NCBI GenBank assembly: GCA_036337435.1
Contig: JAYZEG010000058.1
Location: 247,025 to 311,024 of the forward strand
DNA length: 64,000 nucleotides
Source: Myxococcota bacterium
GTDB taxonomy: Bacteria > Myxococcota_A > Bradymonadia > UBA7976 > UBA1532
Direction of reading: 5' to 3'
Each line of letters starts with the position of its first letter. Positions within the stretch are counted from its first letter, which is position 1. Below, one piece after another: positions 9,368 to 60,541 of this stretch. The position numbers were made by a program, and so were the translations under genes. The notes beneath the pieces are model-generated. The model was not told the origin of the DNA. It worked only from the letters and a program-made list of their open reading frames with translations, and did not search any database.

Positions 9368-10437
9368 CCAGCACCTCGTCTTTTTGGTAGGTCAATGCCG
9401 CAGATTCGCAACGCTTTCAGCGACGGTCCTCCCAGTCCTAGGTTTTTGATTTCCGACACGTCAAATGCGCGAACATCCTCAAAGGAGGCACGTGCGGGTC
9501 TTCCCTGGCATGGATATATCGAGATATCCCATATTTGATGGGTAAACCCATGCCGTACGGTCTGACACTCATCTTGTGGAATCAGGTCCAAAGTCTCGAG
9601 CACATCATGGCTTTTGCCTTCGACCATGGGGAGACTCCAAAGCCCGCCCAACAGGCCTTTCTCAGGGCGACGAACCAGCCAAATTGACCCGTTATTCGTC
9701 CTCGTTAGACCAGCGACCATTTGAATGACAGGACGTTTTTTCTTTGGCACTCGGACCGGAAGAGTCTCGGGGTCTATTTCTTGTCTGGCCCGGCACAGAT
9801 CCATGACTGGACACAACAGGCACTTCGGTTTCTTTGGCGTGCAGACCGTGGCACCGAGTTCCATCATTGCTTGATTAAAGTCACCGGCTCTTTCCTGATC
9901 GAGGAATTCATTTGCCAGGGTCCAAAATTGCTCCTGGACCGCTGAACGTTTTGGGTCTTCCTCAATTCGGTTAAGACGAGATAGCACTCGAATGACATTT
10001 CCGTCGAGGACGGCCATGGGGGCACCATAGGCAATGGATTGCACAGCTGCGCACGTATAACGGCCCACACCGGATAGACCCCGGAAGATGTCCGGGTCGT
10101 CGGGGACTCGACCGCCATGCTCTTCGACGACCTGTGTGGCGGCTTTGTGGAGGTTTCTTGCCCGCGCATAGTAGCCCAAGCCGGCCCAGTAACCCATCAA
10201 TTCGTCCAGTGATGACTCGGCAAGGGATTTGGGCGTAGGGTAGCGCTCGATAAAGCGATTGAAATAGCCAATGACGGATTCAACGCGTGTCTGTTGAAGC
10301 ATAATTTCAGAGACCCAAACCCACCACGGCAATGGGTTTCGACGCCAAGGCATGTCTCGATTGCCTCGATCATACCAATTGAGCAATGCTCTGCGCATTT
10401 TGATGTGATCTATTTGTCTTTCCATGGGTACACTCAA
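9364..10437 (-). CDS. mutY: A/G-specific adenine glycosylase
   Basis: RDMPWR, WVSEIMLQQTRV, WAGLGYYARARNL, HhH GVGRYT, DGNVIRV, and an Fe-S motif CTPKKPKCLLCPV...C. Confidence 0.96.
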   Translation of the reverse strand: MSVPMERQIDHIKMRRALLNWYDRGNRDMPWRRNPLPWWVWVSEIMLQQTRVESVIGYFNRFIERYPTPKSLAESSLDELMGYWAGLGYYARARNLHKAATQVVEEHGGRVPDDPDIFRGLSGVGRYTCAAVQSIAYGAPMAVLDGNVIRVLSRLNRIEEDPKRSAVQEQFWTLANEFLDQERAGDFNQAMMELGATVCTPKKPKCLLCPVMDLCRARQEIDPETLPVRVPKKKRPVIQMVAGLTRTNNGSIWLVRRPEKGLLGGLWSLPMVEGKSHDVLETLDLIPQDECQTVRHGFTHQIWDISIYPCQGRPARASFEDVRAFDVSEIKNLGLGGPSLKALRICGIDLPKRRGAG

Positions 10438-11072
10438 TTTGTTTCACCGCCGCAAAACGGACAAATGCGCGCTTTGTTTAGTCGGGCGCGGCAAAGATGG
10501 TCGCCGCAGATCCGATAACGAATCAGCCGCTGGTACAACCGGCCGCCGACCAGCCCCGCGGCAGCAACCAGCATCGCAAACACCGAGTCAATGTAATAGA
10601 ATTTGGTTAGAAAAATGGAACCGCAGACACCCAGAGCCAATCCGAACACAAGTGCAGAGTTGGTTGGCTGCACCAGGATAGCGGGGATTTTATGGCCTTG
10701 ATTCCAATGGAGCTTCAGGTTGACTTGGTGTAATGCCGCTCGGTTGACCAAGGCCCTCAAAAATCCGACATGCCGTCTCTGGGGTAGCCACCAAGCGACC
10801 ACATGTTCAAAAAAAACGGACCAGCCGAGTCCACTTCTCTGGCCCAAATGAGTACAGAGCGAGTGAGGAAGGAATTGCTCGACAGCAAGTCGCAATAATT
10901 CGATGGCCTCTGCCGGCTCATCTTGGCTGAACTCGAAGCTTCCATCAGGTTTGATTTGAAATTTTGAGTCAGATATCCAAGGCATCAGCGTGTCTAAAGC
11001 CGAATCGATAGCCTTCAGACTGTCGGGCCCTAAAACGACTTCGAGTGATTCCGTCGACAGACTCTGGTTCAA
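10434..11072 (-). CDS. Hypothetical membrane protein with C-terminal zinc-ribbon-like motif
   Basis: Two hydrophobic helices and a terminal CxxxxC...CxxC. Its stop overlaps the mutY start. Confidence 0.6.
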   Translation of the reverse strand: MNQSLSTESLEVVLGPDSLKAIDSALDTLMPWISDSKFQIKPDGSFEFSQDEPAEAIELLRLAVEQFLPHSLCTHLGQRSGLGWSVFFEHVVAWWLPQRRHVGFLRALVNRAALHQVNLKLHWNQGHKIPAILVQPTNSALVFGLALGVCGSIFLTKFYYIDSVFAMLVAAAGLVGGRLYQRLIRYRICGDHLCRARLNKARICPFCGGETN

Positions 11073-47988: not shown

Positions 47989-48960
47989 ATGAGTAATGTA
48001 ATCGTACTCGCAGAGCATGAATCGGGAGACTTGGTCCGTGGGTCCTTGAATGCCATTCAGGCTGCGAAAGAAATCGTGGCCAAAGTGGGTGGAAGCTTTG
48101 ATGTGGCAGTTGTTGGTTCCGGAATTGGAGCCGTAGCAACCGAACTCGCACAATACGGAGCTGCAACCGTCTATCAGGTTGAATCGAGTGCTCTGGCCAG
48201 TTACACGGCACCTGCCTATGCGCAGGGATTTGAGGTCGCCGTGAAGGCATCGGGTGCAACTTATGTACTTGCTGCTGCAACAGCGAAGGGCAAGGACACA
48301 ACGCCTCGATTGGCGGCTCGATTGGGTGCTGGACAGGCCAGTGATGTCATCGCCATCAATGGTGATGGCAGCCAATTGACGTACACTCGTCCAATGTGGG
48401 CAGGATCCGTATTGGGGCAGGTCAAGGTTAACACAGAGGTCACAGTCCTAACGGTCCGGACGACCGGATTTGACGCCGCTCAAGGTGGACAGGGGCAAAG
48501 TGCTGTTGAGACACTGAGTGCTGATATCGACGTGGCGTCATTACGGATGGAATACGTTGGATTGGATTCTGTTAAGTCTGACCGACCGGCATTGACAGAT
48601 GCAGATGTCGTTGTTGCCGGTGGGCGTGGCCTTAAAGAACCAACGAACTTCAAGCTCCTCGAGACCTTAGCTGATCAACTCGGTGGTGCCCTGGGCGCGA
48701 CGAGAGCGGTCGTTGACGAAGGATGGGTTCCCAACGATTGGCAGGTGGGACAAACTGGTAAAGTGGTTGCGCCTAACCTATATATCGCCGTGGGCATCAG
48801 TGGTGCAATCCAGCATCTATCTGGCATGAAGGGTTCAAAGACGATCGTCGCCATTAATAAGGACCCGGAAGCACCCATTTTCCAGGTCGCGGACTACGGT
48901 ATCGTTGCTGACCTCTTCGACATTGTTCCTGAACTCACCGAAAAGATTGGCAATCGCTAA
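47989..48960 (+). CDS. etfA: Electron transfer flavoprotein alpha subunit
   Basis: [30 protein letters not shown] and [11 protein letters not shown] motifs. Confidence 0.96.
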
Positions 48961-48969
48961 GTTCACTCG

Positions 48970-49000
48970 TCTATCGTCGGTCTATGGGGCCGACGATAGA
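48970..49000 (+). terminator. Stem-loop between etfA and the PqqD gene (terminator or processing/stability hairpin)
   Basis: TCTATCGTCGG (48970-80) and CCGACGATAGA (48990-49000) form a perfect 11-bp stem. No U-tract follows. Confidence 0.5.
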
Positions 49001-49015
49001 TAGGAGCTTTGAATC

Positions 49016-49297
49016 ATGAACTCGACCAAACTGATTACACCTCATCGCCGAGTCGCTGCTCGGATCGTCGATGGCTGCGCGCTCATCCTGGATCCCCGGA
49101 CTGACCAATTGCAGAGGTTGAACGAGGTCGGCTCTTTCATTTGGGCGCGAATCATTGAGCGCAGTCACACCAGTGCATCCATCCGTGACCTTTTGATTGA
49201 TGAGTTTCAAGTTGATGAGGCCACTGCCCAATCTGACCTAAGCGCTTTTCTCGATAAACTCGCCGCACGCGATTTAATCGAGTACGCATCCGATTGA
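49016..49297 (+). CDS. PqqD family RiPP recognition element (stand-alone RRE)
   Basis: 93 aa, RIVDGCALIL..LNEVGSFIW..LIDEFQVD...AQSDLSAFLDKLAARDLI, the classic PqqD pattern. AGGAG RBS. Confidence 0.9.
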   Translation: MNSTKLITPHRRVAARIVDGCALILDPRTDQLQRLNEVGSFIWARIIERSHTSASIRDLLIDEFQVDEATAQSDLSAFLDKLAARDLIEYASD

Positions 49298-49534
49298 TTT
49301 TCCCACCCAGCCGAGTAGAGTGCGCATAGCAGATCCCAATAAGTCGCGTTACATACTCAATTCAGACAACGTCCGTATTGAATAGAAAGCGAGTTGATCG
49401 CGAAAATTATGTGGTCGAGCGAACATTTATAGTGCATGTCTGCATCGCAGATGCGCGCAGCCCGTGACACCATTCCTACTTTTGTGGGAGACTACGTCAG
49501 TAATTTGAAGATTGAGACTTGGAGATTATTTCTC

Positions 49535-52500
49535 ATGTTTGGTTCGTTCTGGAAAAATTGGCTCTCTTACCCATTGTTTGTCATTGGGGCACTTGCTCTT
49601 GGTTGTGATGATTCGTCAGGCCCTAATTTACCACCTCAGCCTGATGCGGGTAACTTAAATCAGGTTGTCATTCTTGCACCGACCAATAACGCTGAGCTGA
49701 CAGCGACCGATGACTTAGATGGGGATGTTACCAACGGTCTTCAATTCAAGGTGTCTCTCGATATCAGTTTGGTTAGCGATGGCACATTACAACTCAACGT
49801 TGGTGATTCAATGCCTCAAGTGGTCGATGTCGAGAGCGGCCCTATCGAACTCGACGCATCAGTTCCCTTCGACCGCAACGGAAGCTACCCAATATCTGCA
49901 GTTTTGACGCCTGCTGAAGGTGATCCCGTCAGTGCTGAAATCCGGGTTCAGGTACGGTCTTTCGCATGTTCTATTACCGTCAATCCTCAGCCGAGCGGTG
50001 TTGGTTGTGATTTAGGTGCCTCCGCCGATGAAGATTCAGTCGCACCTGGTTTCCAGACGACCTTGAGTGCACAAACCAGTTGTCCGGAGGTCGTTTTTAC
50101 GGTCAACAATCTCCCAGCAATTACCGCGCAGACCGTTGATGGTGTTGCAAACCAACAGGTCACGCTGAGAGATGGCGAAAACACCATCACAATCAGTGCA
50201 AACGATGGTCTCGCTGATCCAACCGTTGTTGGCCCCTATCCCCTTTCTGTACGCACAACGGGACCCCAATTCGAATTGAATGACTTCAATGGTGGTCGAG
50301 TGAACACGCGCTTAATTGCCGAAGGAGAACAAGACGGAGGTTTAATTTATTGGGCCATTCAAGGTCGGGCAAACGGTGTCGAGCCTGGCGCGAGGGTCCA
50401 ACTCAGTTTCGAGCCTGCTTTGGACAACGCACCCGCTGATGCACGGGTCGATGAAAACGGACAATTTAGATTCGAAGTCGCGGTTGCCAGGGGGGCGTTC
50501 TACTCTGGAGACCTCACGCTGTCGGCGACTGACATTTGCGGCGAAGCAGGTGAGTCCGATGCCTATACAATCCGCCTCGATGCAGTCGTTCCGACCGCAC
50601 AAATCATTGAACCAAGTGACGGTTCTTTACTGGTTTTCAGCCTCGATTTGGAACCAACGCGAGCCGGTGCTCAAATCCCGGTCTCCATCGACTTGATCGA
50701 CCCGCGCCCCAGCGATGTCGACTACCCCATTTCAATCGAATGTGCCGCAGTCAGTGGAAGCCCAGTATTTGTCGACAGGGCTCGGGGGCCCGGCGACGCC
50801 ATTAATCGGTCAGATCTCCTAGATGATGATCCGACCAACGATGCGGTCATTGTGACCTTTCAACAATCAGAGCAAGGTGAATTCATTTGTCGTACGGTTA
50901 TCGGCGGCACGAGTAATCCATCGACGGCTCGCGAAGTTGTATGGAGGGCATTCTTCGACCGGCCGAGCTTCAGCCTCTTTACACCGGCTCGGGCACCATC
51001 TTGCGTACGGTCCGATGAGGTGGACTTTGCTGGAACCGGAATGGATCTAGATGGAAATCAGCCAGCGCTGAGCGCGACCATTACATCGCCGCAATTAGAC
51101 GATGACCTCGTGGTTGGTTTCGAACCGCGCGGCGGCGAGAGGTATGGTTTTGCACTCGATGCTCTTGAGCTTCCAGATGGGGAGTATGCGGTGTCCTTGT
51201 CTGGCCAGGTACTCGGTCAGGTTGATGTTGACATCGAACCACAAGAATTCTCGGTCATCGTCGATAGGCAAGGGCCGACTGTCAGCATTCTAAGTCCCGA
51301 CGCATCAGCGACGTTTGTTGATGAAGATCCAGCAACAGCTGGGACACAGAGTGGCTTGCGGTTCGAGGTTTGTGGCGCAGGCGGCCAAGAGCTCAATATA
51401 ACAACACTGCCAGCACTCGCGGGCAGCCCCTACATTGTCAATATTCCTGCAGACGCTGAATGTTCCACCGTGTCTTTGCCGCCGACGACTGTGCCTTTGG
51501 GCGACGTCCTGATTACGGCTGGCGTAACGGACCGATGTAATGTCCAGGCCAGTGCATCCATGACAGCGTCTATTTCTCCGTCGGCACGAGAGTCGCGCAT
51601 CTTGACTCCAACTCCGGGATTTGTAAACGCCAATTCTGATACAGATAACAATCGTGCAGGTTGTCAATTTGAATTGACCGCCGTTGGTCAAGGAATGGCT
51701 GAGGGTGCAGAGTTCTTTGTGTGTACGAATGTTCAACAAACGGCACCGATAGGCCAATGCAATGGCGCATCATCAGCACTGGCTGGAGCGTGTCGTATTA
51801 CGGGCTCGACGGAAAATGGGGCTCAGGTTGCATGTCCATTGACGCTCGTCGATGGTCAGCATGACATTACATTCGTAGGGATTTTCGGCGATCGCGTGGA
51901 ATCTGCTCCAGTTGCTCTGAACATCGACTGTCAAGCACCCAGTGTGACTCAGCTCACGCTGGTTGATGATGCCGACAACGATGGCTGTATTAACCAGATG
52001 GAAAGGCGTAATCAGGGGGCACCGGGCACGGCAGCTCAATTCCAAGTTCGTGTTCAAACCGAGGGTTTTGAAGATGGGCAAGTCATCCGTTTGTTGACGG
52101 AGGATGGTGTATCCCAAGGCTCAGTCGCCCTCGTCAATAACCAGGGTAACATTACGGTGCAACTCGCTGAAGGAACCAGGACGCTCAATGTTACAGGCTC
52201 CGACCTTGCTGGCAATTCAGTTGCTACAGAAGGCGTGGATGTTGTCACCTTGCCATTGCAAGTGGACACAACAGCACCTACGCCTAGCTTGACCAACATC
52301 GTCCAAGCGGCTTGTTTGAATGCCACTGCTGATGAAGACGAGAACACCGCCGGCCTCCAGTACTCAGTTCAAATTAATACAGGACGTGAGCAGAACGATA
52401 CGGTGACAGCGCGCATGGTCTTGGATGGGATCGAAATCGCAACGCAGCAGGCACAAACAGATACGGTCGACTTTGCTGCGCAGACCTTTGCTGAGGGCGC

Positions 52501-55255
52501 ACATAATCTTGCTGTGACCGTGACTGACGGCTGTTCGAACGTCGGCAGCGTCAGCGGCTTTGCTCAGGTCAATGGCGTTGACGATTGGACCCAGCCGATA
52601 GCGGTCCCCGTTTTGGTCGACACCATCGCGCCCAATTTGAGCATAGACGGTTTGCTTGATGGGGCGATATTAACCGCTATTGACGATGCGGATGCCAACT
52701 CTGCTAACGGTTTTCAGGTCGACTTAGTCGCGCAATTGGATGCCGCTGCTCCAATCGAAGAAGGTGAACAGATTGATCTCACCATCAACGGTGCGCCAGC
52801 CGAAACATCGCCAAGTCCACTGCTTGCCCCAGCGGCAGGCCAAATTGTCGCTCCTGTTCGTGTGACATTATCGCCGGGCGTGCAAACGATGCAGCTTTCC
52901 GCGGCTGACGTTTGCGGTAATGCAGGTACATCGGCGACTGTATCCGTCGAGTTGCAGATTCCTGGTTGCACCAGCAACATTGGCGGCTTTGATACAAATC
53001 CAGCCATCCTTGGTGCTGCAGATGGTATCAGGAGTGGCAATGAGTTGACTTTGGATATCAACGGTCGAGTTGATCTACTGGATCAGGCCTGTGTAGGCGC
53101 ACAAATTCTACTCTTAGTTGACGGCGAGCAGGTCGCCGACTCGGTGGTGCCAGACGGTGGCGTGATTTCATTTCCTGCAGTCACTTTTATCGAAGGGCAA
53201 CGAAACGTAAGGTTTCGGGTTCGAGCAGCTGATGACAGCACCCTAGATTCTCCGAATCAGGCTCTTTCAGTCGACCTCTCAAGCCCGACGTTGTCTGTCG
53301 TGCAGCCTCTCGATGGTGCCTCGTTGCTGACCGATTCCGACGCTGCGACAGCGGGACAGCAGGCTCTCATTCAAGTCAACGTTACGGAGAATTCTGTTGT
53401 CACAGCGAGGACTGCTCTGCTCCGAGTTGATGGTGCCGCAATCGGCGAGCCAATCGCCATTAATTCGGATAGCCCGACATTGGTTAACTTCGCGGGTGTG
53501 ACCCTGAATGCGGGTAACCGTTCGTTGCAGCTCTGTGTCACAGATGAAGCGGGGAATGCTGGCTGTGCAAATTGGTCGGTTAACGCAGATCCCGCTGCGC
53601 CATCGGCCGTGAGTGACCTCCTTGGACAAATTAATGACAGACGGTCGACGGATGTGAGCTTGACGTTTACGGCTCCCGGCGATGATGGTGATGCCGGCGG
53701 ACAGGTTCTACAGTATGCAGTACGACGCGCTGACGCGGCTATTGGTGACGAGAACGCATGGCAGAATGCCGCCTCATCAGAGCTCGTGGTTCCGGCTACT
53801 CTCGCCCCGGGCGGCCAAGAGCTAATTTCTTTGACGGGTGTCGGACCAGGACCGGCCATTCAAGATGGGCTTCAGCAAAATAAAATTCATCATCTTGCTG
53901 TGAGAGCGATGGATGATGCTGGACGGATGAGCGAAATCAGCCAAGTCGTTGTCGATCTGACCATGAATCAGAGAACCGCCAACGTTGAACCGATTTTGGG
54001 ACAGTTGGATGACAGCGACTTTTTCAATCAAGGATCTCAGATTATCGGGGCTGGAGATTTAGATGGGGATGGTCTCAATGACACTTTGGTGGTCGGCTCT
54101 CAAGCGGCTGCATCTGTTGCATCATTGATCTTCGGTGCATTAGATCAGGATGCTCTAACGGTGCTTCCCCTCGAGATTCCCGATTCAATTCTTCAAGGTT
54201 TCTTCGGGCTCGGCGCAGCGAATATTGGTGACGTCAATGGTGATGGTGCAGCTGACTTTGCTGTCATTGGCGTGCAAAATGGGTTTGCTGGGTCCGCCAT
54301 TGTCATTTATTTTGGTTGTGATGGTGCTTGTGATCGCTCGACCCTCGCTACACCCGATGCGTTGATCACGGCAAACAACGGCCGATTGATTAGCGTTGTT
54401 GCCGCAGCCGGCAATTTTAATCAGCGTGCTGGAGATGGTGCGAGCTTGGGCGATATTTTTCTCGGTGGGAGTATCTCAGCTCAGCAAAACCCAACGACGG
54501 CCTTTGTGGTGTCCGGCCGGGCCGATTGGCCGGTGCTACCAGACTCGATTGTTCTCGATGATGATCCTGCAAATAGCAGCGATGGTGTCATCGTCTTGAC
54601 TGTTCCAGATGGCAAGGCCGGTTATGCTGGCGCGAGTGCCGGGAATATCAGTGGTGATGCACGCGATGACCTGGTTTTTAGTGCCGGTAATCCCAGTGTC
54701 ATCTACCGATTCAATGGGGGCGTAGATTTGCCCGACTCAATTACCTATGTCCCTAATAATCCGGACACCGCTGTGGTCCCTCATGTGTGTTCTGCAGACC
54801 CCGATGGATACGGTGAGCACATCATTGGTGGGAAAGACCTGGATGGAGATCCAGGGGGAATCGCTAACTTTGCGGTTGCCGACGGCATCAACCGCCGGGT
54901 GGTGGTTTTTGATGAAAATGACCAACCTATCGATTGCTTTGGCCGCAGTCGGGCTCTATTTGGAAATGTTTTCGACTTTGCTGGTGATTTAGACGGTGAT
55001 GGTTTTGAGGATCTGATCGTCACACATGCTGATACCGATGCAGATGCGTTTGTTTTCTATAACGATGGTCTGGGCCAATTCGGGGACGGAGCAGCCGAAG
55101 CCCCCCGTGGGGCGCACATTATCTTCGATGAACCGGATCTACCAAAAATCGGTGTCGCAGGACTTGGAGATACAAACAATGACGGCCGGGATGATGTCGG
55201 AGCCGTTGTTAAACAACCTGGAGATGTCGATCTCCAGCTGATTATTTATCAGTAG
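49535..55255 (+). CDS. Large secreted lipoprotein: tandem Ig-like domains, Fn3-like domain and FG-GAP repeat propeller
   Basis: Start placed at ATG 49535 (GGAG RBS), giving a signal peptide with lipobox ALG-C. Repeated D..AP and DxAGN Ig motifs, SLTFTAPGDDG (Fn3), and several GDLDGDG..D FG-GAP repeats. Confidence 0.82.
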   Translation: MFGSFWKNWLSYPLFVIGALALGCDDSSGPNLPPQPDAGNLNQVVILAPTNNAELTATDDLDGDVTNGLQFKVSLDISLVSDGTLQLNVGDSMPQVVDVESGPIELDASVPFDRNGSYPISAVLTPAEGDPVSAEIRVQVRSFACSITVNPQPSGVGCDLGASADEDSVAPGFQTTLSAQTSCPEVVFTVNNLPAITAQTVDGVANQQVTLRDGENTITISANDGLADPTVVGPYPLSVRTTGPQFELNDFNGGRVNTRLIAEGEQDGGLIYWAIQGRANGVEPGARVQLSFEPALDNAPADARVDENGQFRFEVAVARGAFYSGDLTLSATDICGEAGESDAYTIRLDAVVPTAQIIEPSDGSLLVFSLDLEPTRAGAQIPVSIDLIDPRPSDVDYPISIECAAVSGSPVFVDRARGPGDAINRSDLLDDDPTNDAVIVTFQQSEQGEFICRTVIGGTSNPSTAREVVWRAFFDRPSFSLFTPARAPSCVRSDEVDFAGTGMDLDGNQPALSATITSPQLDDDLVVGFEPRGGERYGFALDALELPDGEYAVSLSGQVLGQVDVDIEPQEFSVIVDRQGPTVSILSPDASATFVDEDPATAGTQSGLRFEVCGAGGQELNITTLPALAGSPYIVNIPADAECSTVSLPPTTVPLGDVLITAGVTDRCNVQASASMTASISPSARESRILTPTPGFVNANSDTDNNRAGCQFELTAVGQGMAEGAEFFVCTNVQQTAPIGQCNGASSALAGACRITGSTENGAQVACPLTLVDGQHDITFVGIFGDRVESAPVALNIDCQAPSVTQLTLVDDADNDGCINQMERRNQGAPGTAAQFQVRVQTEGFEDGQVIRLLTEDGVSQGSVALVNNQGNITVQLAEGTRTLNVTGSDLAGNSVATEGVDVVTLPLQVDTTAPTPSLTNIVQAACLNATADEDENTAGLQYSVQINTGREQNDTVTARMVLDGIEIATQQAQTDTVDFAAQTFAEGAHNLAVTVTDGCSNVGSVSGFAQVNGVDDWTQPIAVPVLVDTIAPNLSIDGLLDGAILTAIDDADANSANGFQVDLVAQLDAAAPIEEGEQIDLTINGAPAETSPSPLLAPAAGQIVAPVRVTLSPGVQTMQLSAADVCGNAGTSATVSVELQIPGCTSNIGGFDTNPAILGAADGIRSGNELTLDINGRVDLLDQACVGAQILLLVDGEQVADSVVPDGGVISFPAVTFIEGQRNVRFRVRAADDSTLDSPNQALSVDLSSPTLSVVQPLDGASLLTDSDAATAGQQALIQVNVTENSVVTARTALLRVDGAAIGEPIAINSDSPTLVNFAGVTLNAGNRSLQLCVTDEAGNAGCANWSVNADPAAPSAVSDLLGQINDRRSTDVSLTFTAPGDDGDAGGQVLQYAVRRADAAIGDENAWQNAASSELVVPATLAPGGQELISLTGVGPGPAIQDGLQQNKIHHLAVRAMDDAGRMSEISQVVVDLTMNQRTANVEPILGQLDDSDFFNQGSQIIGAGDLDGDGLNDTLVVGSQAAASVASLIFGALDQDALTVLPLEIPDSILQGFFGLGAANIGDVNGDGAADFAVIGVQNGFAGSAIVIYFGCDGACDRSTLATPDALITANNGRLISVVAAAGNFNQRAGDGASLGDIFLGGSISAQQNPTTAFVVSGRADWPVLPDSIVLDDDPANSSDGVIVLTVPDGKAGYAGASAGNISGDARDDLVFSAGNPSVIYRFNGGVDLPDSITYVPNNPDTAVVPHVCSADPDGYGEHIIGGKDLDGDPGGIANFAVADGINRRVVVFDENDQPIDCFGRSRALFGNVFDFAGDLDGDGFEDLIVTHADTDADAFVFYNDGLGQFGDGAAEAPRGAHIIFDEPDLPKIGVAGLGDTNNDGRDDVGAVVKQPGDVDLQLIIYQ

Positions 55256-55272
55256 CCGTTAGGAGTGACCAA

Positions 55273-55449
55273 ATGTCTAAGAAAAAGGCTGAAATAAACC
55301 AAGAGGTCAAAGCGCAGGATCACCGTCGCCCGTACAAGGCACCCGACTTTATGTCATCCCTCGCATTTGAAAGAAAATCCCTCGCATGTAATCCAGCGAC
55401 GCGGAACGCCAGCCCGGCTTTTCCTGCACTCTGTTCCATGCAGTCCTAA
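55273..55449 (+). CDS. Putative RiPP precursor peptide (58 aa, not in ORF track)
   Basis: AGGAG RBS at 55261. Translation: MSKKKAEINQEVKAQDHRRPYKAPDFMSSLAFERKSLACNPATRNASPAFPALCSMQS*. It has a YxxP motif and exactly fills the gap between the flanking genes. Confidence 0.8.
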   Translation: MSKKKAEINQEVKAQDHRRPYKAPDFMSSLAFERKSLACNPATRNASPAFPALCSMQS

Positions 55450-55464
55450 CCAAAAGTCAAACCG

Positions 55465-56229
55465 ATGAGTCGTCTTTACATTGGGCCAATCGAGATCCGT
55501 TTGAACGGAACTGGATATAGCCACTTTTTGACTCAATATGATTTTGGACCATTTGCGCGTAAGCGACCTGTCGAGAGAACCATAGAGCTGACTTTTGGTG
55601 AGAAACATGATGTCCGGCTTGACGTAGCCTCTTTCATCTATCGCCGACATGACCTGAGTTTTATTGCCCACGAGCGGCGATGCTTAGCTTGGGTTTCCGG
55701 CGATATATCGGGTTTTCTTGCATGCTTAGAATTGGCCTTGTTTATTGGAGTAAGCCAGCTCGGTGGCGTCTTAATGCACGCATCAGTGGGTGTTCTTGAC
55801 GACGAAGCCTGGCTCATGCCGGGTCCATCAGGCACAGGGAAATCAACAGCGATAAACGGTGGATTTGACCGAATCCTAAGCGATGAACGTGTGATTCTGG
55901 TCAAAGAACACCGCGGCTATCGTGTTTGGGGTACACCATTTTGGAGCGACGGCCGTTGCTGGCCGTTGGATGTGTCCAGTGGCGTATTAGCGGGAATCAT
56001 CAAGTTGGTTCAATCTCCGACGCTGGCCCGCTGTGAGTTAGACAGGATAGAGATGATCGAGTGGGTCATGCGCTCTGTCATCATGTATGGTGAATCTGCA
56101 GTCAACGCGGATGACTTAATGACATTTGTTGTTCACATGGTGGACTCAACAGAACGAATCCAAGTTTCGTTTCCAAAGGAGGGGTTATGGGCAACTTCGA
56201 TGCTCAGTCAGATTGGTCTGGCTTCGTAA
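55465..56229 (+). CDS. HPr kinase-like P-loop protein (ScmC-like, RiPP-associated kinase)
   Basis: MHAS...GPSGTGKST...LSDERV...WGTPFW, matching the HPrK His, P-loop and acidic motifs. Confidence 0.75.
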   Translation: MSRLYIGPIEIRLNGTGYSHFLTQYDFGPFARKRPVERTIELTFGEKHDVRLDVASFIYRRHDLSFIAHERRCLAWVSGDISGFLACLELALFIGVSQLGGVLMHASVGVLDDEAWLMPGPSGTGKSTAINGGFDRILSDERVILVKEHRGYRVWGTPFWSDGRCWPLDVSSGVLAGIIKLVQSPTLARCELDRIEMIEWVMRSVIMYGESAVNADDLMTFVVHMVDSTERIQVSFPKEGLWATSMLSQIGLAS

Positions 56230-57413
56230 AGTCGGCAATCGAGAATACCATTCCCTTTACTGTTCATTGGGATTTAACCTGGCGCTGTGACCACAAATGC
56301 GTCCATTGCTATCTGACAGATCGGCGCAAGCCGGAACTCGATGTAGACGAAAGTATCGCCGTACTGGACCAGCTTGTTGACGCGGGCACCTTGTCGATTC
56401 TTTTCAGCGGCGGTGATCCGTTTCTGCGGCCTGATGGAATTGATATTATGCGGGCGGCTCGTCAACGAGACTTCGATGTCCGGATCAACACTCATGGGAA
56501 TTTTATCGACGATGCCATGGCCGACGAACTCGCCCGAATCGGTGTTGCAAGGGTCAGCTTGTCTGTCTACTCAGCAAATGCCAGCGAACACGACGCGGTT
56601 ACGCTCATCCCGGGCAGTCATCAGAAAACATTGGATGCGGCTAGGCGGCTGGTTGCTCGCGATGTCGCAGTCAACTTCAAGACACCGGTCATGGTTCAAA
56701 ACCGAGACTCTTATCAGACCGTTGGGCCGATAGCGGAAGACATTGGTGCATCTTGGGAATTGGATGCTCACATCGTCCCCGATGACCAAAGTGACTTTGG
56801 TCTCTGCTCAATCGGTGTTCATGATGGCGAACGCGTGCTCGCGATGATGCATCAAGTCGCCGAACGAAGGAACATGGTTACTCATTGGGCGAACATGCCC
56901 GATGCGTCGTCGACGGCACGCACCTGTGGTGCTGGCACAGCGATGGCCTATATTTCCCCCGATGGAATTCTCTATCCCTGTCTTAACTGGCGGGATCCAA
57001 TCGGCGACCTTCGGGAGAACTCCTTTAAATCTCTATGGCGGGACAGTGCCGCGATTAAACGGCAAAGAGAAGTGACTCGTGCCAGTTATGAGAGCGACTG
57101 CGGAGGCTGTAGTTTTCAGGGAAAGTGTCATTACTGCCCAGGAATATCCCATGCTGAGCATGGTTCAGCTGGTCGCCGAAGTGCGTATGTCTGTGAACGA
57201 ACACACCTCACGATGACGGCTTTCGAACACTTAGAATACTTAAATCAGGTGGGTCAGCCAATTCCGAAACCAGGTTCGCCAGAAGCCGTTGATATTTTGA
57301 GTCGAACAACTTTTGCCAAGCGTCAATGGTCTGCTCGAAAGGCCGGTGTTGCTCGGCCCTCAGACCAAGTGCGCCCCAATCTCTTTCAAATTCTTGAGCC
57401 AGGTCAACGTTGA
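56187..57413 (+). CDS. Radical SAM/SPASM peptide maturase
   Basis: CDHKCVHC, FSGGDPF, and SPASM cysteines CGAG..ISPDG..YPC...CGGC..KCHYCPG...C. AAGGAGG RBS. Confidence 0.92.
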   Translation: MGNFDAQSDWSGFVKSAIENTIPFTVHWDLTWRCDHKCVHCYLTDRRKPELDVDESIAVLDQLVDAGTLSILFSGGDPFLRPDGIDIMRAARQRDFDVRINTHGNFIDDAMADELARIGVARVSLSVYSANASEHDAVTLIPGSHQKTLDAARRLVARDVAVNFKTPVMVQNRDSYQTVGPIAEDIGASWELDAHIVPDDQSDFGLCSIGVHDGERVLAMMHQVAERRNMVTHWANMPDASSTARTCGAGTAMAYISPDGILYPCLNWRDPIGDLRENSFKSLWRDSAAIKRQREVTRASYESDCGGCSFQGKCHYCPGISHAEHGSAGRRSAYVCERTHLTMTAFEHLEYLNQVGQPIPKPGSPEAVDILSRTTFAKRQWSARKAGVARPSDQVRPNLFQILEPGQR

Positions 57414-57850
57414 TGTTGCCGCTCGATGCCGCAATAACGGCTTCTTTATCCAACGAGCTTCTCGCGAAGGGTGAGTCGATTCAGTTTGTGGCGAGGGGAC
57501 AATCTATGTGGCCGTTCATTATCGATGGCGACACCGTTCTCTTGGAACCTCTCGTTCATCAACCGTGCGTTGGTGACGTTGTCTTACTCAAGAAAACGGA
57601 AACTGGTCCCTTACATCGTGTGGTTGCAGGGCCTCACCAGGGTCGTTTTCGAGTTTGGGGGGACGCGCTGCCGCGTCCGGATGCATGGGTACGAGCGGAT
57701 GAAATGCTGGGTCGATTGGTTCGGAGACAACGTGATGGAGTTGATAAAACCGTCTATGGTGGGTTCCAGGCCGTTCTCATGGCCAGAGTGCTCGGTACGT
57801 CTCGCCGGTTTATTTCAAAAATTAAACGCGGGTTTCTTGGAAGCCGATAA
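57413..57850 (+). CDS. S24/S26 family (signal peptidase-like) peptidase, no TM anchor
   Basis: GQSMWPFI.DGD (catalytic Ser), GDVV, LHRVV (His base) and WGDALPRPD. TGATG overlap with the rSAM gene. Confidence 0.8.
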   Translation: MLPLDAAITASLSNELLAKGESIQFVARGQSMWPFIIDGDTVLLEPLVHQPCVGDVVLLKKTETGPLHRVVAGPHQGRFRVWGDALPRPDAWVRADEMLGRLVRRQRDGVDKTVYGGFQAVLMARVLGTSRRFISKIKRGFLGSR

Positions 57851-57871
57851 GACTTCGGTCAACATAGGCAT

Positions 57872-59410
57872 ATGGCAAATTCACTCGTAATCAATTGTAG
57901 TCCACACGAAACTCGCATTGGGGTCATCGAAAACAACAAAGTTGTGGAATTGATGATCGAACGAAGAAAAACCACGGGCTTGTTGGGCAATATTTATAAG
58001 GGTCGAGTCACACGAGTCCTACCCGGTATGCAGGCAGCTTTTGTCGACATTGGGCTTGAGCGCGCAGCGTTTTTATATGTCGCCGACGTAACGGACGCGA
58101 GACGCAGTCGCAGTTCATCAAACTCAGTGTCCGATACAAGGGCTGAAAGTTATCATCCGCCCATTCAAAATTTGTTGCACGAAGGGCAGGAGATTATGGT
58201 CCAAGTCTCCAAGGAACCTTTAGGGACGAAGGGGGCCCGTGTCACGAGTAATGTCAGTATTGCCGGTCGACATCTGGTTTATATGCCGACAGTTGAGCAT
58301 GTCGGGATCAGCCGGCGCATTTCCGATGAGGAGGAGCGTAGACGTCTAAGAGAAGCCCTTGAGACATTGGTTCCTCAAGGTGGCGGGTTTGTCGCTCGGA
58401 CGGCAGCGGAAGGTCGGAGTCTCGAAGAGTTGGGCGCGGACGTGGAATTCTTAAGCCAGGTCTGGAACGACATCGTTAATCGAATGGAGAATAGTGCAGC
58501 TCCGGTCACGCTTTATGACGACCTAGATTTGCTCTTAAGGTCGGCGAGAGACCTGGTTATGCCCGACCTAGAAGAGATCGTTATCGATGATGAGGTCGAA
58601 TTTTCTAGGCTTTTAGATTTCATGCGTCGCTTTATGCCGCGCTACGCCGAGCGGGTCGTTCGATTCGATGGTGACGGACCAATTTTTGATCACTATGGTG
58701 TCGAGATTGAACTCAACCGGGCTTTATCCAGAAAGGTTTGGCTTCCCAGCGGGGGGTACTTGATTATCGATCAGACTGAAGCTTTGACGGCCATTGACGT
58801 CAATACGGGGCGGTTTGTTGGTAAGAGAAATTTGTCAGAAACCATTTTAAAGACCAATGTCGAGGCCGTGACAGAGGTCGTTCGGCAACTTCGCCTTCGC
58901 AATATTGGGGGTATCATTGTCATCGACTTCATCGATATGGAGTCGCCCAATAATCGACACCGTGTTTATGCAGACCTCGAGTTGGCCTTAGAGAGTGATC
59001 GCGCCCGAACCAATATTCTCAAAATCAGTGAGCTAGGCCTTGTAGAAATGACTCGTAAACGGGTTCGAGAGTCGCTTGTGAGGTCGGTTTCTGAGTCGTG
59101 CTTTTACTGCGACGGCACAGGTCTTTTAAAGAGCCGGACAACCATTGCACATGAAGTCTACCGCACGCTGCTCAGAGAAGGCCCGTCCATGCGCACGAAG
59201 ACCATACGGGTTTCCGTACATCCGCGTGTTTCTACGAGTTTTCACGCCGATGAGCGTGTGTTGATAGACGAACTTGAATCGAGACTCGAGAGGACCATTC
59301 GATTAGAAAGTCGATCAGATTTTCACATCGAACACTTCGAGATCTCGGCTATCGACCAATCTGAAATGGTCGTTGGTCGAAAAATCACAGGCTCCGCCGG
59401 CGACCGCTGA
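57872..59410 (+). CDS. rng: Ribonuclease G (Rne/Rng family)
   Basis: GNIYKGRVTRVLPGMQAAFVDIG, KEPLGTKGAR, TEALTAIDVNTG, RLRNIGGIIVIDFIDM and the CxxC Zn-link. No RNase E scaffold region. Confidence 0.92.
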   Translation: MANSLVINCSPHETRIGVIENNKVVELMIERRKTTGLLGNIYKGRVTRVLPGMQAAFVDIGLERAAFLYVADVTDARRSRSSSNSVSDTRAESYHPPIQNLLHEGQEIMVQVSKEPLGTKGARVTSNVSIAGRHLVYMPTVEHVGISRRISDEEERRRLREALETLVPQGGGFVARTAAEGRSLEELGADVEFLSQVWNDIVNRMENSAAPVTLYDDLDLLLRSARDLVMPDLEEIVIDDEVEFSRLLDFMRRFMPRYAERVVRFDGDGPIFDHYGVEIELNRALSRKVWLPSGGYLIIDQTEALTAIDVNTGRFVGKRNLSETILKTNVEAVTEVVRQLRLRNIGGIIVIDFIDMESPNNRHRVYADLELALESDRARTNILKISELGLVEMTRKRVRESLVRSVSESCFYCDGTGLLKSRTTIAHEVYRTLLREGPSMRTKTIRVSVHPRVSTSFHADERVLIDELESRLERTIRLESRSDFHIEHFEISAIDQSEMVVGRKITGSAGDR

Positions 59411-59828
59411 GAAGAGCACACAATTCTGTATAGGCTGTGTTTAATTCTTGGCTGCGGGTGTGTGCAGCGCGTTCCGCCGCCGGATCATGAGCAAACAGGT
59501 CCGGGTGATTTTTTCGCATGGCTTTGCGCCAGGCTTGTTTCACTTCATCCAGAGACGCTCCAGGTTCTAGACCCAGGGTATGGTAGTACGAATTCGCGTT
59601 TCTAGCCCGATCGACATGGGTGTGTGCGCGCTGAGCCTCATCCTGCATTCGTCGGACCCAAACCCACAGCTCTTCTTCTAAATTGATGAGCCAAGATTCA
59701 ACATTTTCCCGCGATTCCTTAATTCGGTCGGTCACCTTGTCAACCTGACGTTGAACTCTGGGTTGTGACAGTATGAACTGTCCTGCGGATCGCCCTAATT
59801 TGGCGACGATGTCCTTAAATTTACTCAC
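59385..59828 (-). CDS. Protein with C-terminal DnaJ domain
   Basis: YYHTLGL..ASLDEVKQAWRK..NHPD...LNTAY. Confidence 0.85.
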   Translation of the reverse strand: MSKFKDIVAKLGRSAGQFILSQPRVQRQVDKVTDRIKESRENVESWLINLEEELWVWVRRMQDEAQRAHTHVDRARNANSYYHTLGLEPGASLDEVKQAWRKAMRKNHPDLFAHDPAAERAAHTRSQELNTAYTELCALLSGRRRSL

Positions 59829-59857: not shown

Positions 59858-60541
59858 CTAGGAGATCCGCTCGGTCACGGTGAGTCCATGCCGATCATAG
59901 GTTCGGCCGCACTCCTCGCAAGTACAAGATTCTTTACCATCGTGCACGCCAAAGGCGAGCCGCTCCCCACAAAAGCAGGCCCAGCCCTGCAAACGTGCAG
60001 GGTTTCCGTAGACCAAGCCGTAGTCTGGTACATCTTTTGTTACGACAGCCCCCGCTCCGACCAGAGAATATTGCCCGAGTGTATTTCCACAAACCACCGT
60101 TGCGTTCGCACCAATGGATGCGCCGCGACGAACGCGCGTCTCGAGATATTGTCCACGTCGGGGATATGCACTTCGCGGTGTTCCAACATTTGTAAACACC
60201 ATCGATGGTCCACAAAAGACATCGTCTTCGAGAATTACACCCGAGTAGACCGAGACATTGTTTTGGATTTTGACGTTATTTCCGATTAAAACATCGCGCT
60301 CGATGACGACGTTTTGACCAAAGCTACAGTTTTGTCCGATAGTCAGCGGACCCAGCAACTTACTGAAGTGCCAAATCTTAGTTCCATGGCCAATGGTCAC
60401 ATCACCATCTATAACAACTGATTCGTGTACAAAGGCTTTTTCCTCACCGTTCAGATTCTCGGTCACAGGGGGTCTCCGCATTCGGTTTAGTATTTCGTTC
60501 AGGCGTTGTTTGAACGCTGATATCTTGAAGGAACTGGACAA
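59858..60541 (-). CDS. Hexapeptide N-acetyltransferase (WbpD-like, sugar-nucleotide acetyltransferase)
   Basis: GTKIWHFS, VKIQNNVSVY, VFCGPSMVFTNV..PRS, GASIGANAT, GNPAR and a C-terminal CxC..CxxC. The true start may be downstream of 60541. Confidence 0.88.
   Translation of the reverse strand: MSSSFKISAFKQRLNEILNRMRRPPVTENLNGEEKAFVHESVVIDGDVTIGHGTKIWHFSKLLGPLTIGQNCSFGQNVVIERDVLIGNNVKIQNNVSVYSGVILEDDVFCGPSMVFTNVGTPRSAYPRRGQYLETRVRRGASIGANATVVCGNTLGQYSLVGAGAVVTKDVPDYGLVYGNPARLQGWACFCGERLAFGVHDGKESCTCEECGRTYDRHGLTVTERIS

Follow-up and report, generated by a model that had tools for sequence, protein, structure and literature searches.

What does a bacterium make with a short run of genes in which a PqqD-family protein, a 58-residue peptide, a kinase-like protein, a radical S-adenosylmethionine (rSAM) enzyme and a signal-peptidase-like protease stand close together? 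We addressed this question for a locus of a Myxococcota bacterium of the class Bradymonadia (contig JAYZEG010000058.1 of assembly GCA_036337435.1, which is 4.38 Mb in size and 87% complete). The locus lies within a stretch of 64,000 nucleotides that was analysed as a whole and is referred to below as the window. A first-pass annotation of this DNA had described six co-oriented genes and proposed that they form a system for a ribosomally made peptide with post-translational modifications (RiPP). The listing of open reading frames (ORFs) in the window bears out the gene count, with all six ORFs on the + strand between positions 49016 and 57850, as then described.

Our analysis indicates that the locus very likely serves peptide maturation in one form or another. 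The more specific reading that we favour, with a probability of about 0.6, is a five-gene cytoplasmic cassette that would act on the 58-residue peptide in four steps, outlined below. The sixth gene, which encodes a giant lipoprotein, is an accessory insert.

The precursor peptide belongs to a widespread family

The 58-residue peptide is the product of a real gene under purifying selection, since it is preceded by an AGGAG ribosome-binding site, carries the motifs of a family and shows an excess of synonymous changes relative to a congener (locus L012). Over the last 41 codons the two genes differ at 26 synonymous and 3 non-synonymous positions, and over the 20 codons of the predicted core at 12 synonymous positions and 1 non-synonymous position; between the two loci, identity is only 50% for the kinase-like and S26 proteins and 80% for the rSAM enzyme. 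The genome holds one copy of the precursor gene.

Among 19 close homologues (alignment A4), P24, F32, C39 and C54 are invariant and 17 of the peptides end in Ser. The larger alignment A7, of 113 sequences, retains P24 and C39 as invariant positions, with Y21, F32, E33 and L37 conserved in at least 90%. A profile built from the 19 close homologues and searched against 1.84 billion representatives retrieved 346 clusters at E ≤ 0.001, 20 of them at E ≤ 1e-10; the taxonomic breadth of these clusters rests on the named loci and on the Acidobacteriota sample described below. Motifs were counted in the 145 representatives of at most 90 residues among the 150 matches listed of the 346. A C-terminal Ser is found in 133 of these 145, Ala or Ser at position -3 from the first core Cys in 134, Ala, Ser or Gly at position -1 in 138, and exactly two Cys in 106. 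The last Cys mostly lies 4-7 residues from the C-terminus, and the cores, with a median length of 19 residues (range 9-45), are hypervariable across genera. The window's peptide has no Pfam match, and neither it nor any of 30 family representatives matched an NCBIfam model at E ≤ 0.03 or better.

Three genomes of the Acidobacteriota sample (G456, G440 and G421) contain 12, 11 and 6 matches, respectively, to the leader part only (profile positions ~12-41). These matches sit in longer frames of 69-197 residues, several of them in tandem, and may belong to an enlarged family of longer substrates with the same leader.

The gene set is conserved among relatives and recurs in other phyla

The first-pass annotation had made its proposal depend on rSAM homologues keeping a conserved small YxxP peptide together with kinase and S26 partners, and in relatives of the window's bacterium they do. 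We compared 20 loci surrounding rSAM orthologues by tblastn and ORF reading. All but L030 have the kinase-like gene directly upstream of the rSAM gene (19 loci); 18 have a motif-bearing small ORF ahead of the kinase-like gene, and in 14 tblastn places the S26 gene downstream of the rSAM gene. PqqD orthologues are present in 15 of the loci, 14 detected by tblastn and one, in L018, by ORF reading. As this order recurs in relatives, the six-gene arrangement is far beyond chance. The two loci without the small ORF are L022, which ends inside the kinase-like gene, and L030. The genome of the latter (G026, from a sister family) retains all parts of a cassette that is split over three contigs (L110, L111 and L112), with PqqD beside the giant gene on one, the peptide beside the kinase-like gene on another and the rSAM gene alone on the third. 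It carries an S26-like gene elsewhere (3.4e-15), and four other genomes with an S26-less cassette likewise have an S26 homologue elsewhere (7.1e-36 to 8.0e-12).

A second, independent set comprised 79 loci from named genomes, 40 of which hold an rSAM match at E ≤ 1e-100. Within 4 kb, 35 of these 40 show the kinase-like gene, which L047, L054, L055, L060 and L061 lack; the S26 gene occurs in 32 and the peptide in 31. The named relatives come from marine and lake samples; they are metagenome-assembled genomes with the labels Bradymonadia, Myxococcales or Myxococcota. Within our sample of the phylum, the kinase-like protein occurs in 17 of 17 genomes of the window's own family (f1) and in both genomes of the sister family (f2), and in 0/35, 0/9 and 0/10 genomes of three other families of the class.

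PqqD, kinase-like, rSAM and S26 genes are also grouped, in different orders, at loci with the labels Anaerolineaceae, Nitrospinae, Omnitrophota, Holophagales, Sandaracinaceae and Bdellovibrionales. Among these more distant loci the precursor profile gave a match only in those labelled Sandaracinaceae and Thermoanaerobaculia; none of the four Anaerolineaceae, Nitrospinae, Holophagales and Omnitrophota genomes with all four enzymes gave a match (0/4), and the precursors of these cassettes, if any, may belong to another family or have been missed. A sample of the Acidobacteriota, the phylum of a Thermoanaerobaculia-labelled genome, gave a peptide match at E ≤ 0.001 in 57 of 251 genomes (56 of 250 without the unpublished genome G566). 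In five of the best six loci of this sample (L114, L115, L116, L118 and L119) the peptide is followed by S26 and kinase-like genes, and PqqD is present in three of them; the remaining locus, L117, yielded only the peptide in the ~3 kb examined.

One locus (L063, contig CAZFPM010000291.1, 6.8 kb) carries two cassette copies that face each other. Peptide, kinase-like and rSAM genes on one strand are followed by S26, kinase-like, rSAM and peptide genes on the opposite strand, and the two peptide cores differ.

A lasso-like leader and its recognition element

The first-pass domain assignments hold in hidden Markov model (HMM) searches, with good scores for PqqD, rSAM and SPASM and weak ones for the S24/S26, ScmC and HprK-related families. 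The PqqD protein matches PF05402 at 4.4e-16, its 59.4 bits lying above the gathering score of 23.4. Among NCBIfam models it scores best with ScmD (8.3e-08), followed by lasso B1-type chaperones (1.1e-07 and 3.6e-07), none of which reaches its cut-off; residues N36, W43, F64 and A71 are invariant among its homologues (alignment A5).

The leader of the peptide contains the motif Y21-x-x-P24-x-F26, which resembles the YxxPxL motif of lasso leaders and places Y, P and F at -18, -15 and -13 from the predicted cleavage site. In lasso precursors the motif spans -17 to -12 and is read by B1 RiPP recognition elements (RREs) (PMC10368454). The lasso-like leader logic proposed in the first pass agrees with the motif and with the best-scoring models for PqqD. 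A model of the PqqD-precursor complex supports this pairing weakly, with a score of 0.38 (best of three controls 0.00; run agreement at least 87%; predicted local distance difference test score (pLDDT) of the partner 49); in calibration, 116 of 157 solved complexes and 2 of 215 mismatched pairs attained the mark, and a pass at or below 0.60 is wrong more often than not unless the pair was likely beforehand. Complexes of RREs with leaders have already been solved, and this likeness may contribute to, or bias, the model.

The rSAM enzyme is a predicted peptide maturase

The rSAM protein matches PF04055 (2.9e-20) and the SPASM family PF13186 (4.9e-08), both above the cut-offs. An alignment of 20 sequences shows a CX3CX2C motif (C34-x3-C38-x2-C41) and a full seven-Cys SPASM region (Cys 247, 265, 305, 308, 314, 317 and 336), all of these Cys being invariant. 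The closest solved sequences are SkfB (5.8e-23), which forms thioethers, and PqqE (5.1e-22), and the protein aligns over its full length with the MftC and PqqE models. All its NCBIfam scores lie far below the cut-offs, among them those for MftC (97.5 against 265 bits), StsB (81.8 against 625), PqqE (79.1 against 381) and AlbA (50 against 850). Among SPASM enzymes that act on Cys-bearing peptides, the formation of thioether crosslinks is the most frequent chemistry.

CrpC, an archaeal thioether enzyme (PMC13692751), belongs to a different family, TIGR04463.

The kinase-like protein is a P-loop protein of probable ScmC type

The kinase-like protein matches ScmC (6e-07, 29.1 bits) over 68 residues only, and HprK-related kinase A at 2.8e-04, both below their cut-offs; it has no match to Pfam Hpr_kinase at E ≤ 0.1. 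A Pfam scan gave no ScmC match either, and a lead without an HMM score of its own comes from Atlas look-alikes (0.96-0.97, TM 0.83), 56-81% of whose members carry PF27840 ScmC. H105, G120, G125, K126, T128, E141, P158 and W160 are invariant in the alignment, and D140 is conserved in at least 90%; the fourth position of the His-Lys-Asp-Asp motif is the invariant Glu141. An AlphaFold2 (AF2) model of the protein has a pLDDT of 91.2. With this model, Foldseek returned ATP-dependent phosphoenolpyruvate carboxykinase (PEPCK) at the top (1.4e-05) and HprK/P only from rank 32 (E 2.3e-04, TM 0.27), and the sequence profile matches ATP-PEPCK around the same His/P-loop/Asp-Glu stretch.

The protein may also have a counterpart in lasso biosynthesis. 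The complete genome G035, from a sister family, has no rSAM cassette and contains a cluster that we read as lasso-type from its neighbouring genes and the published bsf layout. Using hhalign, the kinase-like profile aligned with a 340-residue kinase-like ORF of this cluster at 95.6% probability over 61 columns, which cover the His, the P-loop and the acidic pair. The rSAM cassette and the lasso-type cluster may be alternatives within the class. The locus concerned (L120, G035:C1:277522-280701) comprises an ABC transporter, a PqqD-like RRE, the 340-residue kinase-like ORF, a 147-residue ORF and a further ORF. The HPr-kinase-like enzymes PadeK and ThcoK phosphorylate the C-terminal Ser of linear lasso precursors, and this Ser is conserved wherever a lasso kinase is present (PMC9266682); in Bradymonas, the RRE BsfB1 strongly enhances the kinase BsfK (PMC10368454).

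Two further observations concern this gene. An Atlas cluster of 584 members (~578 residues), in which Candidatus Aminicenantota is the commonest taxon, consists of proteins with Radical_SAM fused to ScmC, and these fusions point to a tight functional coupling of the two activities. In a relative's locus (L015, G023:C12) the kinase-like gene matches in two overlapping pieces in different frames at ~10433-10783, the cassette being otherwise intact, which reflects either a frameshift or an assembly error.

The S26 protein resembles a soluble signal peptidase

The S26 gene has weak matches to PF00717 (0.0041), to the archaeal/endoplasmic reticulum (ER)-type signal peptidase I model TIGR02228 (3.6e-07, 30.2 bits against a cut-off of 51.85) and to the nickel superoxide dismutase (Ni-SOD) protease model TIGR02754 (0.018). 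In an alignment of 15 sequences, G30-x-S32-M33-x-P35, H69-R70, G84-D85 and D91 are invariant. Human SEC11C (1.7e-05) and SEC11A (3.9e-05) are the top matches of its profile in the PDB, aligned across the GxSMxP, HR and GD motifs, and by these residues we class the protein with the ER/archaeal Ser/His/Asp type. It has no membrane anchor, the maximum hydropathy over 19 residues being 1.29, and should therefore act in the cytoplasm; its putative substrate, the precursor, has no signal peptide. Small residues at -3 and -1 before a cut are the rule for signal peptidases. SipW of Bacillus is an ER-type signal peptidase, and the Ni-SOD maturation protease is a precedent for a cytosolic S26 enzyme. 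The suggestion of the first-pass annotation that an S26-like enzyme may remove the leader remains plausible, as the Ser/His/Asp set is kept and the anchor is absent.

The giant lipoprotein is an accessory insert

The giant protein matches Big_13 (2.7e-10) and, weakly, FG-GAP (Pfam). A hydrophobic N-terminal stretch followed by (G/A/S)-Cys-Asp is found in 10 of the 11 orthologues read, so the label 'lipoprotein' is reasonable. The ATG at 49535 is the most likely start of the gene, as a stop closes the upstream frame in the closest relative.

Its inclusion as a member of the system stands less firmly. The gene is present and plausibly encodes a lipoprotein, but it is missing from the cassette in 11 loci: PqqD directly precedes the peptide in L018, L021, L023 and L028, and likewise in L043, L044, L046, L048, L049, L067 and L069. 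No orthologue was found elsewhere in G015, G014 or G006 (search with the C-terminal 700 residues, E ≤ 1e-10), and the cassettes in other phyla are without it. By these comparisons the giant lipoprotein is a lineage-specific accessory insert and no part of the core cassette.

The published bsf lasso cluster is bordered by an FG-GAP protein (PMC10368454). The giant gene was considered as a mark of a locus shared with the lasso clusters of cultured Bradymonadales; the C-terminal 700 residues had no match in five genomes of family f6 at E ≤ 1e-10, a null that shows little, and the idea was dropped.

A proposed pathway and its alternatives

We infer all four steps of the proposed pathway, and their order, from the genes, catalytic residues, linkage, purifying selection and motifs described above. 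PqqD would bind the leader at Y21-x-x-P24-x-F26 and present the peptide. The rSAM/SPASM enzyme would then modify the core of about 20 residues at Cys39 and Cys54, most likely by forming thioether crosslinks. The ScmC-type enzyme, using a nucleotide, would phosphorylate a core Ser, most likely the C-terminal Ser58, as HPr-kinase-like enzymes do on lasso precursors. Finally, the S26 peptidase would cut after S36-L37-A38, a small-x-small sequence, and free a core that starts at Cys39. The two Cys and the terminal Ser are the only conserved positions of the core, so the three enzymes probably act there.

Several observations weigh against this pathway or parts of it. The subclade represented by L062, L063, L065, L067 and L069 keeps the kinase-like gene, yet its peptides end in Cys, Pro or Gly, and BsfK modifies Ser3, not the C-terminus (PMC10368454); the site of phosphorylation is therefore uncertain. 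Asn replaces D140 in the kinase-like protein of L028, and the ScmC part of the rSAM-ScmC fusions may assist the rSAM step rather than tailor the peptide. The spacing between the two core Cys varies and no crosslink acceptor residue is conserved; a plain disulfide, with the rSAM enzyme acting elsewhere, is possible. The locus contains no exporter, immunity gene or regulator, and vertical inheritance between housekeeping genes, as seen for this cassette, is uncommon for a secreted peptide of antibiotic type. Lastly, the top NCBIfam matches of the rSAM protein are heme enzymes, AhbD (132.6 bits, 2.1e-38) and NirJ2 (126.3 bits, 1.8e-36), each with a cut-off of 500 bits.

Some of these observations suit a different product. 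The same enzymes could produce, from the peptide, a cofactor or signal for use inside the cell, comparable to pyrroloquinoline quinone (PQQ) or mycofactocin, with nothing secreted and with the useful part perhaps limited to a small number of residues close to the conserved Cys and the terminal Ser. A locus without transporter, immunity gene or regulator, five core proteins without membrane segments and a single precursor copy would all agree with such a role, as would the kinase-like gene in every sampled genome of the two families, the conserved synteny with EtfAB and RNase G, and the persistence of the genes even when dispersed. The rSAM enzyme also aligns full-length with MftC and PqqE, the latter being its second-best solved relative. 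We regard this explanation as unlikely, because the cores, at 9-45 residues, vary widely between genera, unlike cofactor precursors (PqqA and MftA cores are conserved), because the MftC and PqqE scores fall far under their cut-offs, and because the 6-12 leader-like matches in some Acidobacteriota genomes fit diversified products better. The heme-enzyme matches raise the further idea of an rSAM enzyme for tetrapyrroles or another small molecule, AhbD- or NirJ-like, with the small ORF and PqqD as incidental neighbours. It is highly improbable: both scores are far under 500 bits, the best solved relatives, SkfB and PqqE, modify peptides, and across phyla the gene stays linked to an RRE, a conserved peptide and a peptidase.

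Two other explanations turn on gene content. The peptide system might serve the giant FG-GAP lipoprotein, with the modified peptide as its ligand, partner or maturation factor and the six genes as one unit. In most relatives' loci the giant gene does lie inside the cassette, 17 nt before the precursor; PqqD stays beside it in the split G026 cassette, and RNA-library contigs bridge its 3' end and the precursor. PqqD would also end up next to the giant gene after two random breaks of an ancestral order, however, and the cassettes that lack this gene in the 11 loci named above and in other phyla, together with the lack of a match to its C-terminal 700 residues in G015, G014 and G006, make this arrangement a rather improbable explanation. 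A degenerate or variant lasso peptide cluster would account for the YxxPxF leader, the B1-like RRE and the relationship of the kinase-like core to the ORF of a lasso-type cluster. Lasso cores have an N-terminal Gly, Ala, Ser or Cys and an Asp or Glu at position 7-9 as ring acceptor; the core in the window starts with Cys and contains no Asp or Glu anywhere. As the first-pass annotation had noted, neither a lasso cyclase (macrolactam synthetase) nor a transglutaminase-like B2 protease is found among the six ORFs, and the flanks hold none; a lasso cluster is already contradicted by this gene content and is scarcely credible. We therefore retain the five-gene maturation cassette as the preferred reading.

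Relationship to known systems

The nearest named system is SynChlorMet, to which the first-pass annotation had noted a resemblance: both combine a ScmC-type P-loop protein, a PqqD-type chaperone and an rSAM/SPASM enzyme, and its models give the best or near-best named matches for the kinase-like protein and PqqD. This resemblance in gene types does not extend to membership by curated scores, which reach 29.1 of 125 bits for ScmC (TIGR04249), 32.3 of 100 for ScmD (TIGR04248), 69.7 of 400 for ScmE (TIGR04250) and 69.1 of 400 for ScmF (TIGR04251). Moreover, the locus has one rSAM enzyme and not two (ScmE and ScmF), and it has an S26 peptidase and an identified precursor family; to our knowledge, the text of the SynChlorMet models identifies no SCM precursor. 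The cassettes from more distant phyla also miss the curated thresholds (13 proteins scored).

The pathways for phosphorylated lasso peptides, namely paeninodin (PadeK/ThcoK) and the bsf cluster of Bradymonas sediminis (BsfK/BsfB1), share with the present system a stand-alone PqqD-type RRE and a YxxPx(L/F) leader at nearly the same distance from the cut (PMC10368454), as well as an HPr-kinase-like P-loop enzyme, which in lasso pathways acts on the linear precursor, and a conserved C-terminal Ser of the precursor (PMC9266682). They differ in that an rSAM/SPASM enzyme and an S26 peptidase here take the place of the cyclase and the B2 protease. Homology to the lasso kinases is confined to the His/P-loop/Asp region, where the second Asp of His-Lys-Asp-Asp is Glu.

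Like the RRE-dependent rSAM maturases (SkfB, PqqE/PqqD, MftC/MftB and the sacti- and ranthipeptide synthases), the present system combines a CX3CX2C motif and a seven-Cys SPASM region with a separate PqqD partner and core Cys, whereas its rSAM enzyme falls into no curated maturase family, all scores being under the cut-offs. Similarly, the S26 protein shares with ER/archaeal signal peptidases (SEC11A/C) the GxSMxP, HR and GD...D motifs and a small-x-small sequence before the predicted cut, but it has no membrane anchor, its substrate has no signal peptide and its score is under the cut-off.

Judged by sequence, then, the system appears lasso-like at its leader, RRE and kinase end and sacti-/ranthipeptide-, PQQ- or mycofactocin-like at its rSAM end, and a member of none of these groups; we read it as a class-level variant of RRE-dependent radical-SAM peptide maturation. 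The literature searched, which did not cover subscription-only papers and supplements and so leaves room for a mention in large surveys of rSAM RiPPs, holds no description of this architecture, in agreement with the first-pass statement that no characterized product was known for it.

Organization of the locus and its surroundings

The features of the locus are listed in Table 1. The first-pass annotation had called the last four genes tightly coupled; the packing is real and includes the last five, with spacers of 17 nt between the giant gene and the peptide and 15 nt between the peptide and the kinase-like gene, and overlaps of 43 nt between the kinase-like and rSAM genes and 4 nt between the rSAM and S26 genes. 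EtfB and EtfA lie upstream of the cassette and RNase G downstream. ORF reading of the window and of relatives' loci revealed no transporter in the locus, as had been stated before, and hydropathy analysis gave no membrane segment in any of the five core proteins.

Table 1. Positions of the cassette genes and associated features in the window
Feature	Coordinates	Strand	Remarks
PqqD-family RiPP recognition element, 93 aa	49016..49297	+	PF05402; predicted stand-alone leader-binding chaperone
Giant FG-GAP/bacterial Ig-like lipoprotein, 1939 aa	49436..55255	+	Big_13; probable true start 49535
AGGAG ribosome-binding site	55261..55265	+	7 nt 5' of precursor ATG, within 17-nt spacer CCGTTAGGAGTGACCAA
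58-aa precursor peptide gene	55273..55449	+	no Pfam or NCBIfam match; conserved family
Precursor leader, residues 1-38	55273..55386	+	R-R-P-Y21-x-x-P24-x-F26 ... F32-E-R-x-S36-L37-A38
Predicted 20-residue core (Cys39 ... Cys54-x-x-x-Ser58) and stop codon	55387..55449	+	alignments, codon comparison
ScmC-type P-loop phosphotransferase, PEPCK/HPr-kinase fold, 254 aa (putative)	55465..56229	+	weak ScmC/HprK_rel_A matches, AF2 model
Radical SAM/SPASM enzyme, 408 aa, predicted peptide maturase	56187..57413	+	PF04055, PF13186
Soluble S26 (ER/SipW-type) peptidase, 146 aa, predicted leader peptidase	57410..57850	+	conserved motifs, SEC11 alignment

RNA-library contigs at least 99% identical to the window (four runs, three studies) span 55047-57065 piecewise and cross the junctions of the giant gene with the peptide, of the peptide with the kinase-like gene and of the latter with the rSAM gene; as assembled contigs, in which carry-over of DNA is possible, they are a weak indication of expression. 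Coverage is absent from 57066-57900, where the rSAM gene ends and the S26 gene lies, and nothing follows from this gap. A consensus scan of 48800-58100 gave 3 promoter-like sites against a shuffled mean of 7.2, and 13 terminator-like sites against a shuffled mean of 9.1, which was counted as no more than in the shuffles. In the absence of an excess of either, no operon boundaries can be claimed from the scans.

A 10-bp perfect inverted repeat with a 9-nt loop (CTATCGTCGG ... CCGACGATAG, 48971-48999) lies between the end of etfA and the start of PqqD, just 5' of a GGAG sequence, and is a possible transcript end or processing hairpin separating the Etf genes from the cassette. The terminator-like scan picked a hairpin with an 8-bp stem at 55218-55237; it falls within the final codons of the giant gene, 18 nt ahead of the stop codon, with the precursor following shortly downstream. 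Beyond RNase G, a small DnaJ-domain protein (59385-59828, - strand) and a hexapeptide-repeat acetyltransferase-like gene (59858-60541, - strand) form a block that is followed by a class A penicillin-binding protein; its synteny is kept in several relatives, and it seems to have nothing to do with the cassette.

Implications

RRE-guided radical SAM peptides have been a productive source of new enzyme chemistry. The precursor family described here comes with a well-defined leader, a predicted site of cleavage and three core positions that are conserved, and it can be tied to a ScmC/PqqD/rSAM cassette type that curated databases list only as an orphan system. Two of the proposed roles would be unusual: a soluble homologue of ER-type signal peptidases as leader peptidase, and an enzyme of the PEPCK/HPr-kinase fold acting on a radical-SAM peptide. 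A phosphorylated Ser might even serve as the leaving group for ring closure onto the nearby Cys (C-x-x-x-S), which, if true, would give a thioether ring without a lanthipeptide dehydratase or a classical sactisynthase mechanism.

More tentatively, and with odds that we place somewhat below even, the locus may represent a large, cross-phylum and hitherto undescribed class of ribosomal peptides. Its members would have a YxxPxF leader, a cytoplasmic AxA-type cut made by a soluble ER-signal-peptidase homologue, a core delimited by two Cys, and a C-terminal Ser that would be activated by an enzyme of ScmC type in close cooperation with an rSAM/SPASM partner; in marine Bradymonadia they would have a physiological or predation-related role. 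Given the wide spread of the family (346 clusters, 17 of 17 genomes of the window's family by the kinase-like gene, and 57 of 251 Acidobacteriota), its product likely matters to many uncultured bacteria. On the tentative reading above, the cassette of marine Bradymonadia would be a core trait passed on vertically and set against a giant surface protein, in keeping with a role in physiology or predation rather than with an antibiotic.

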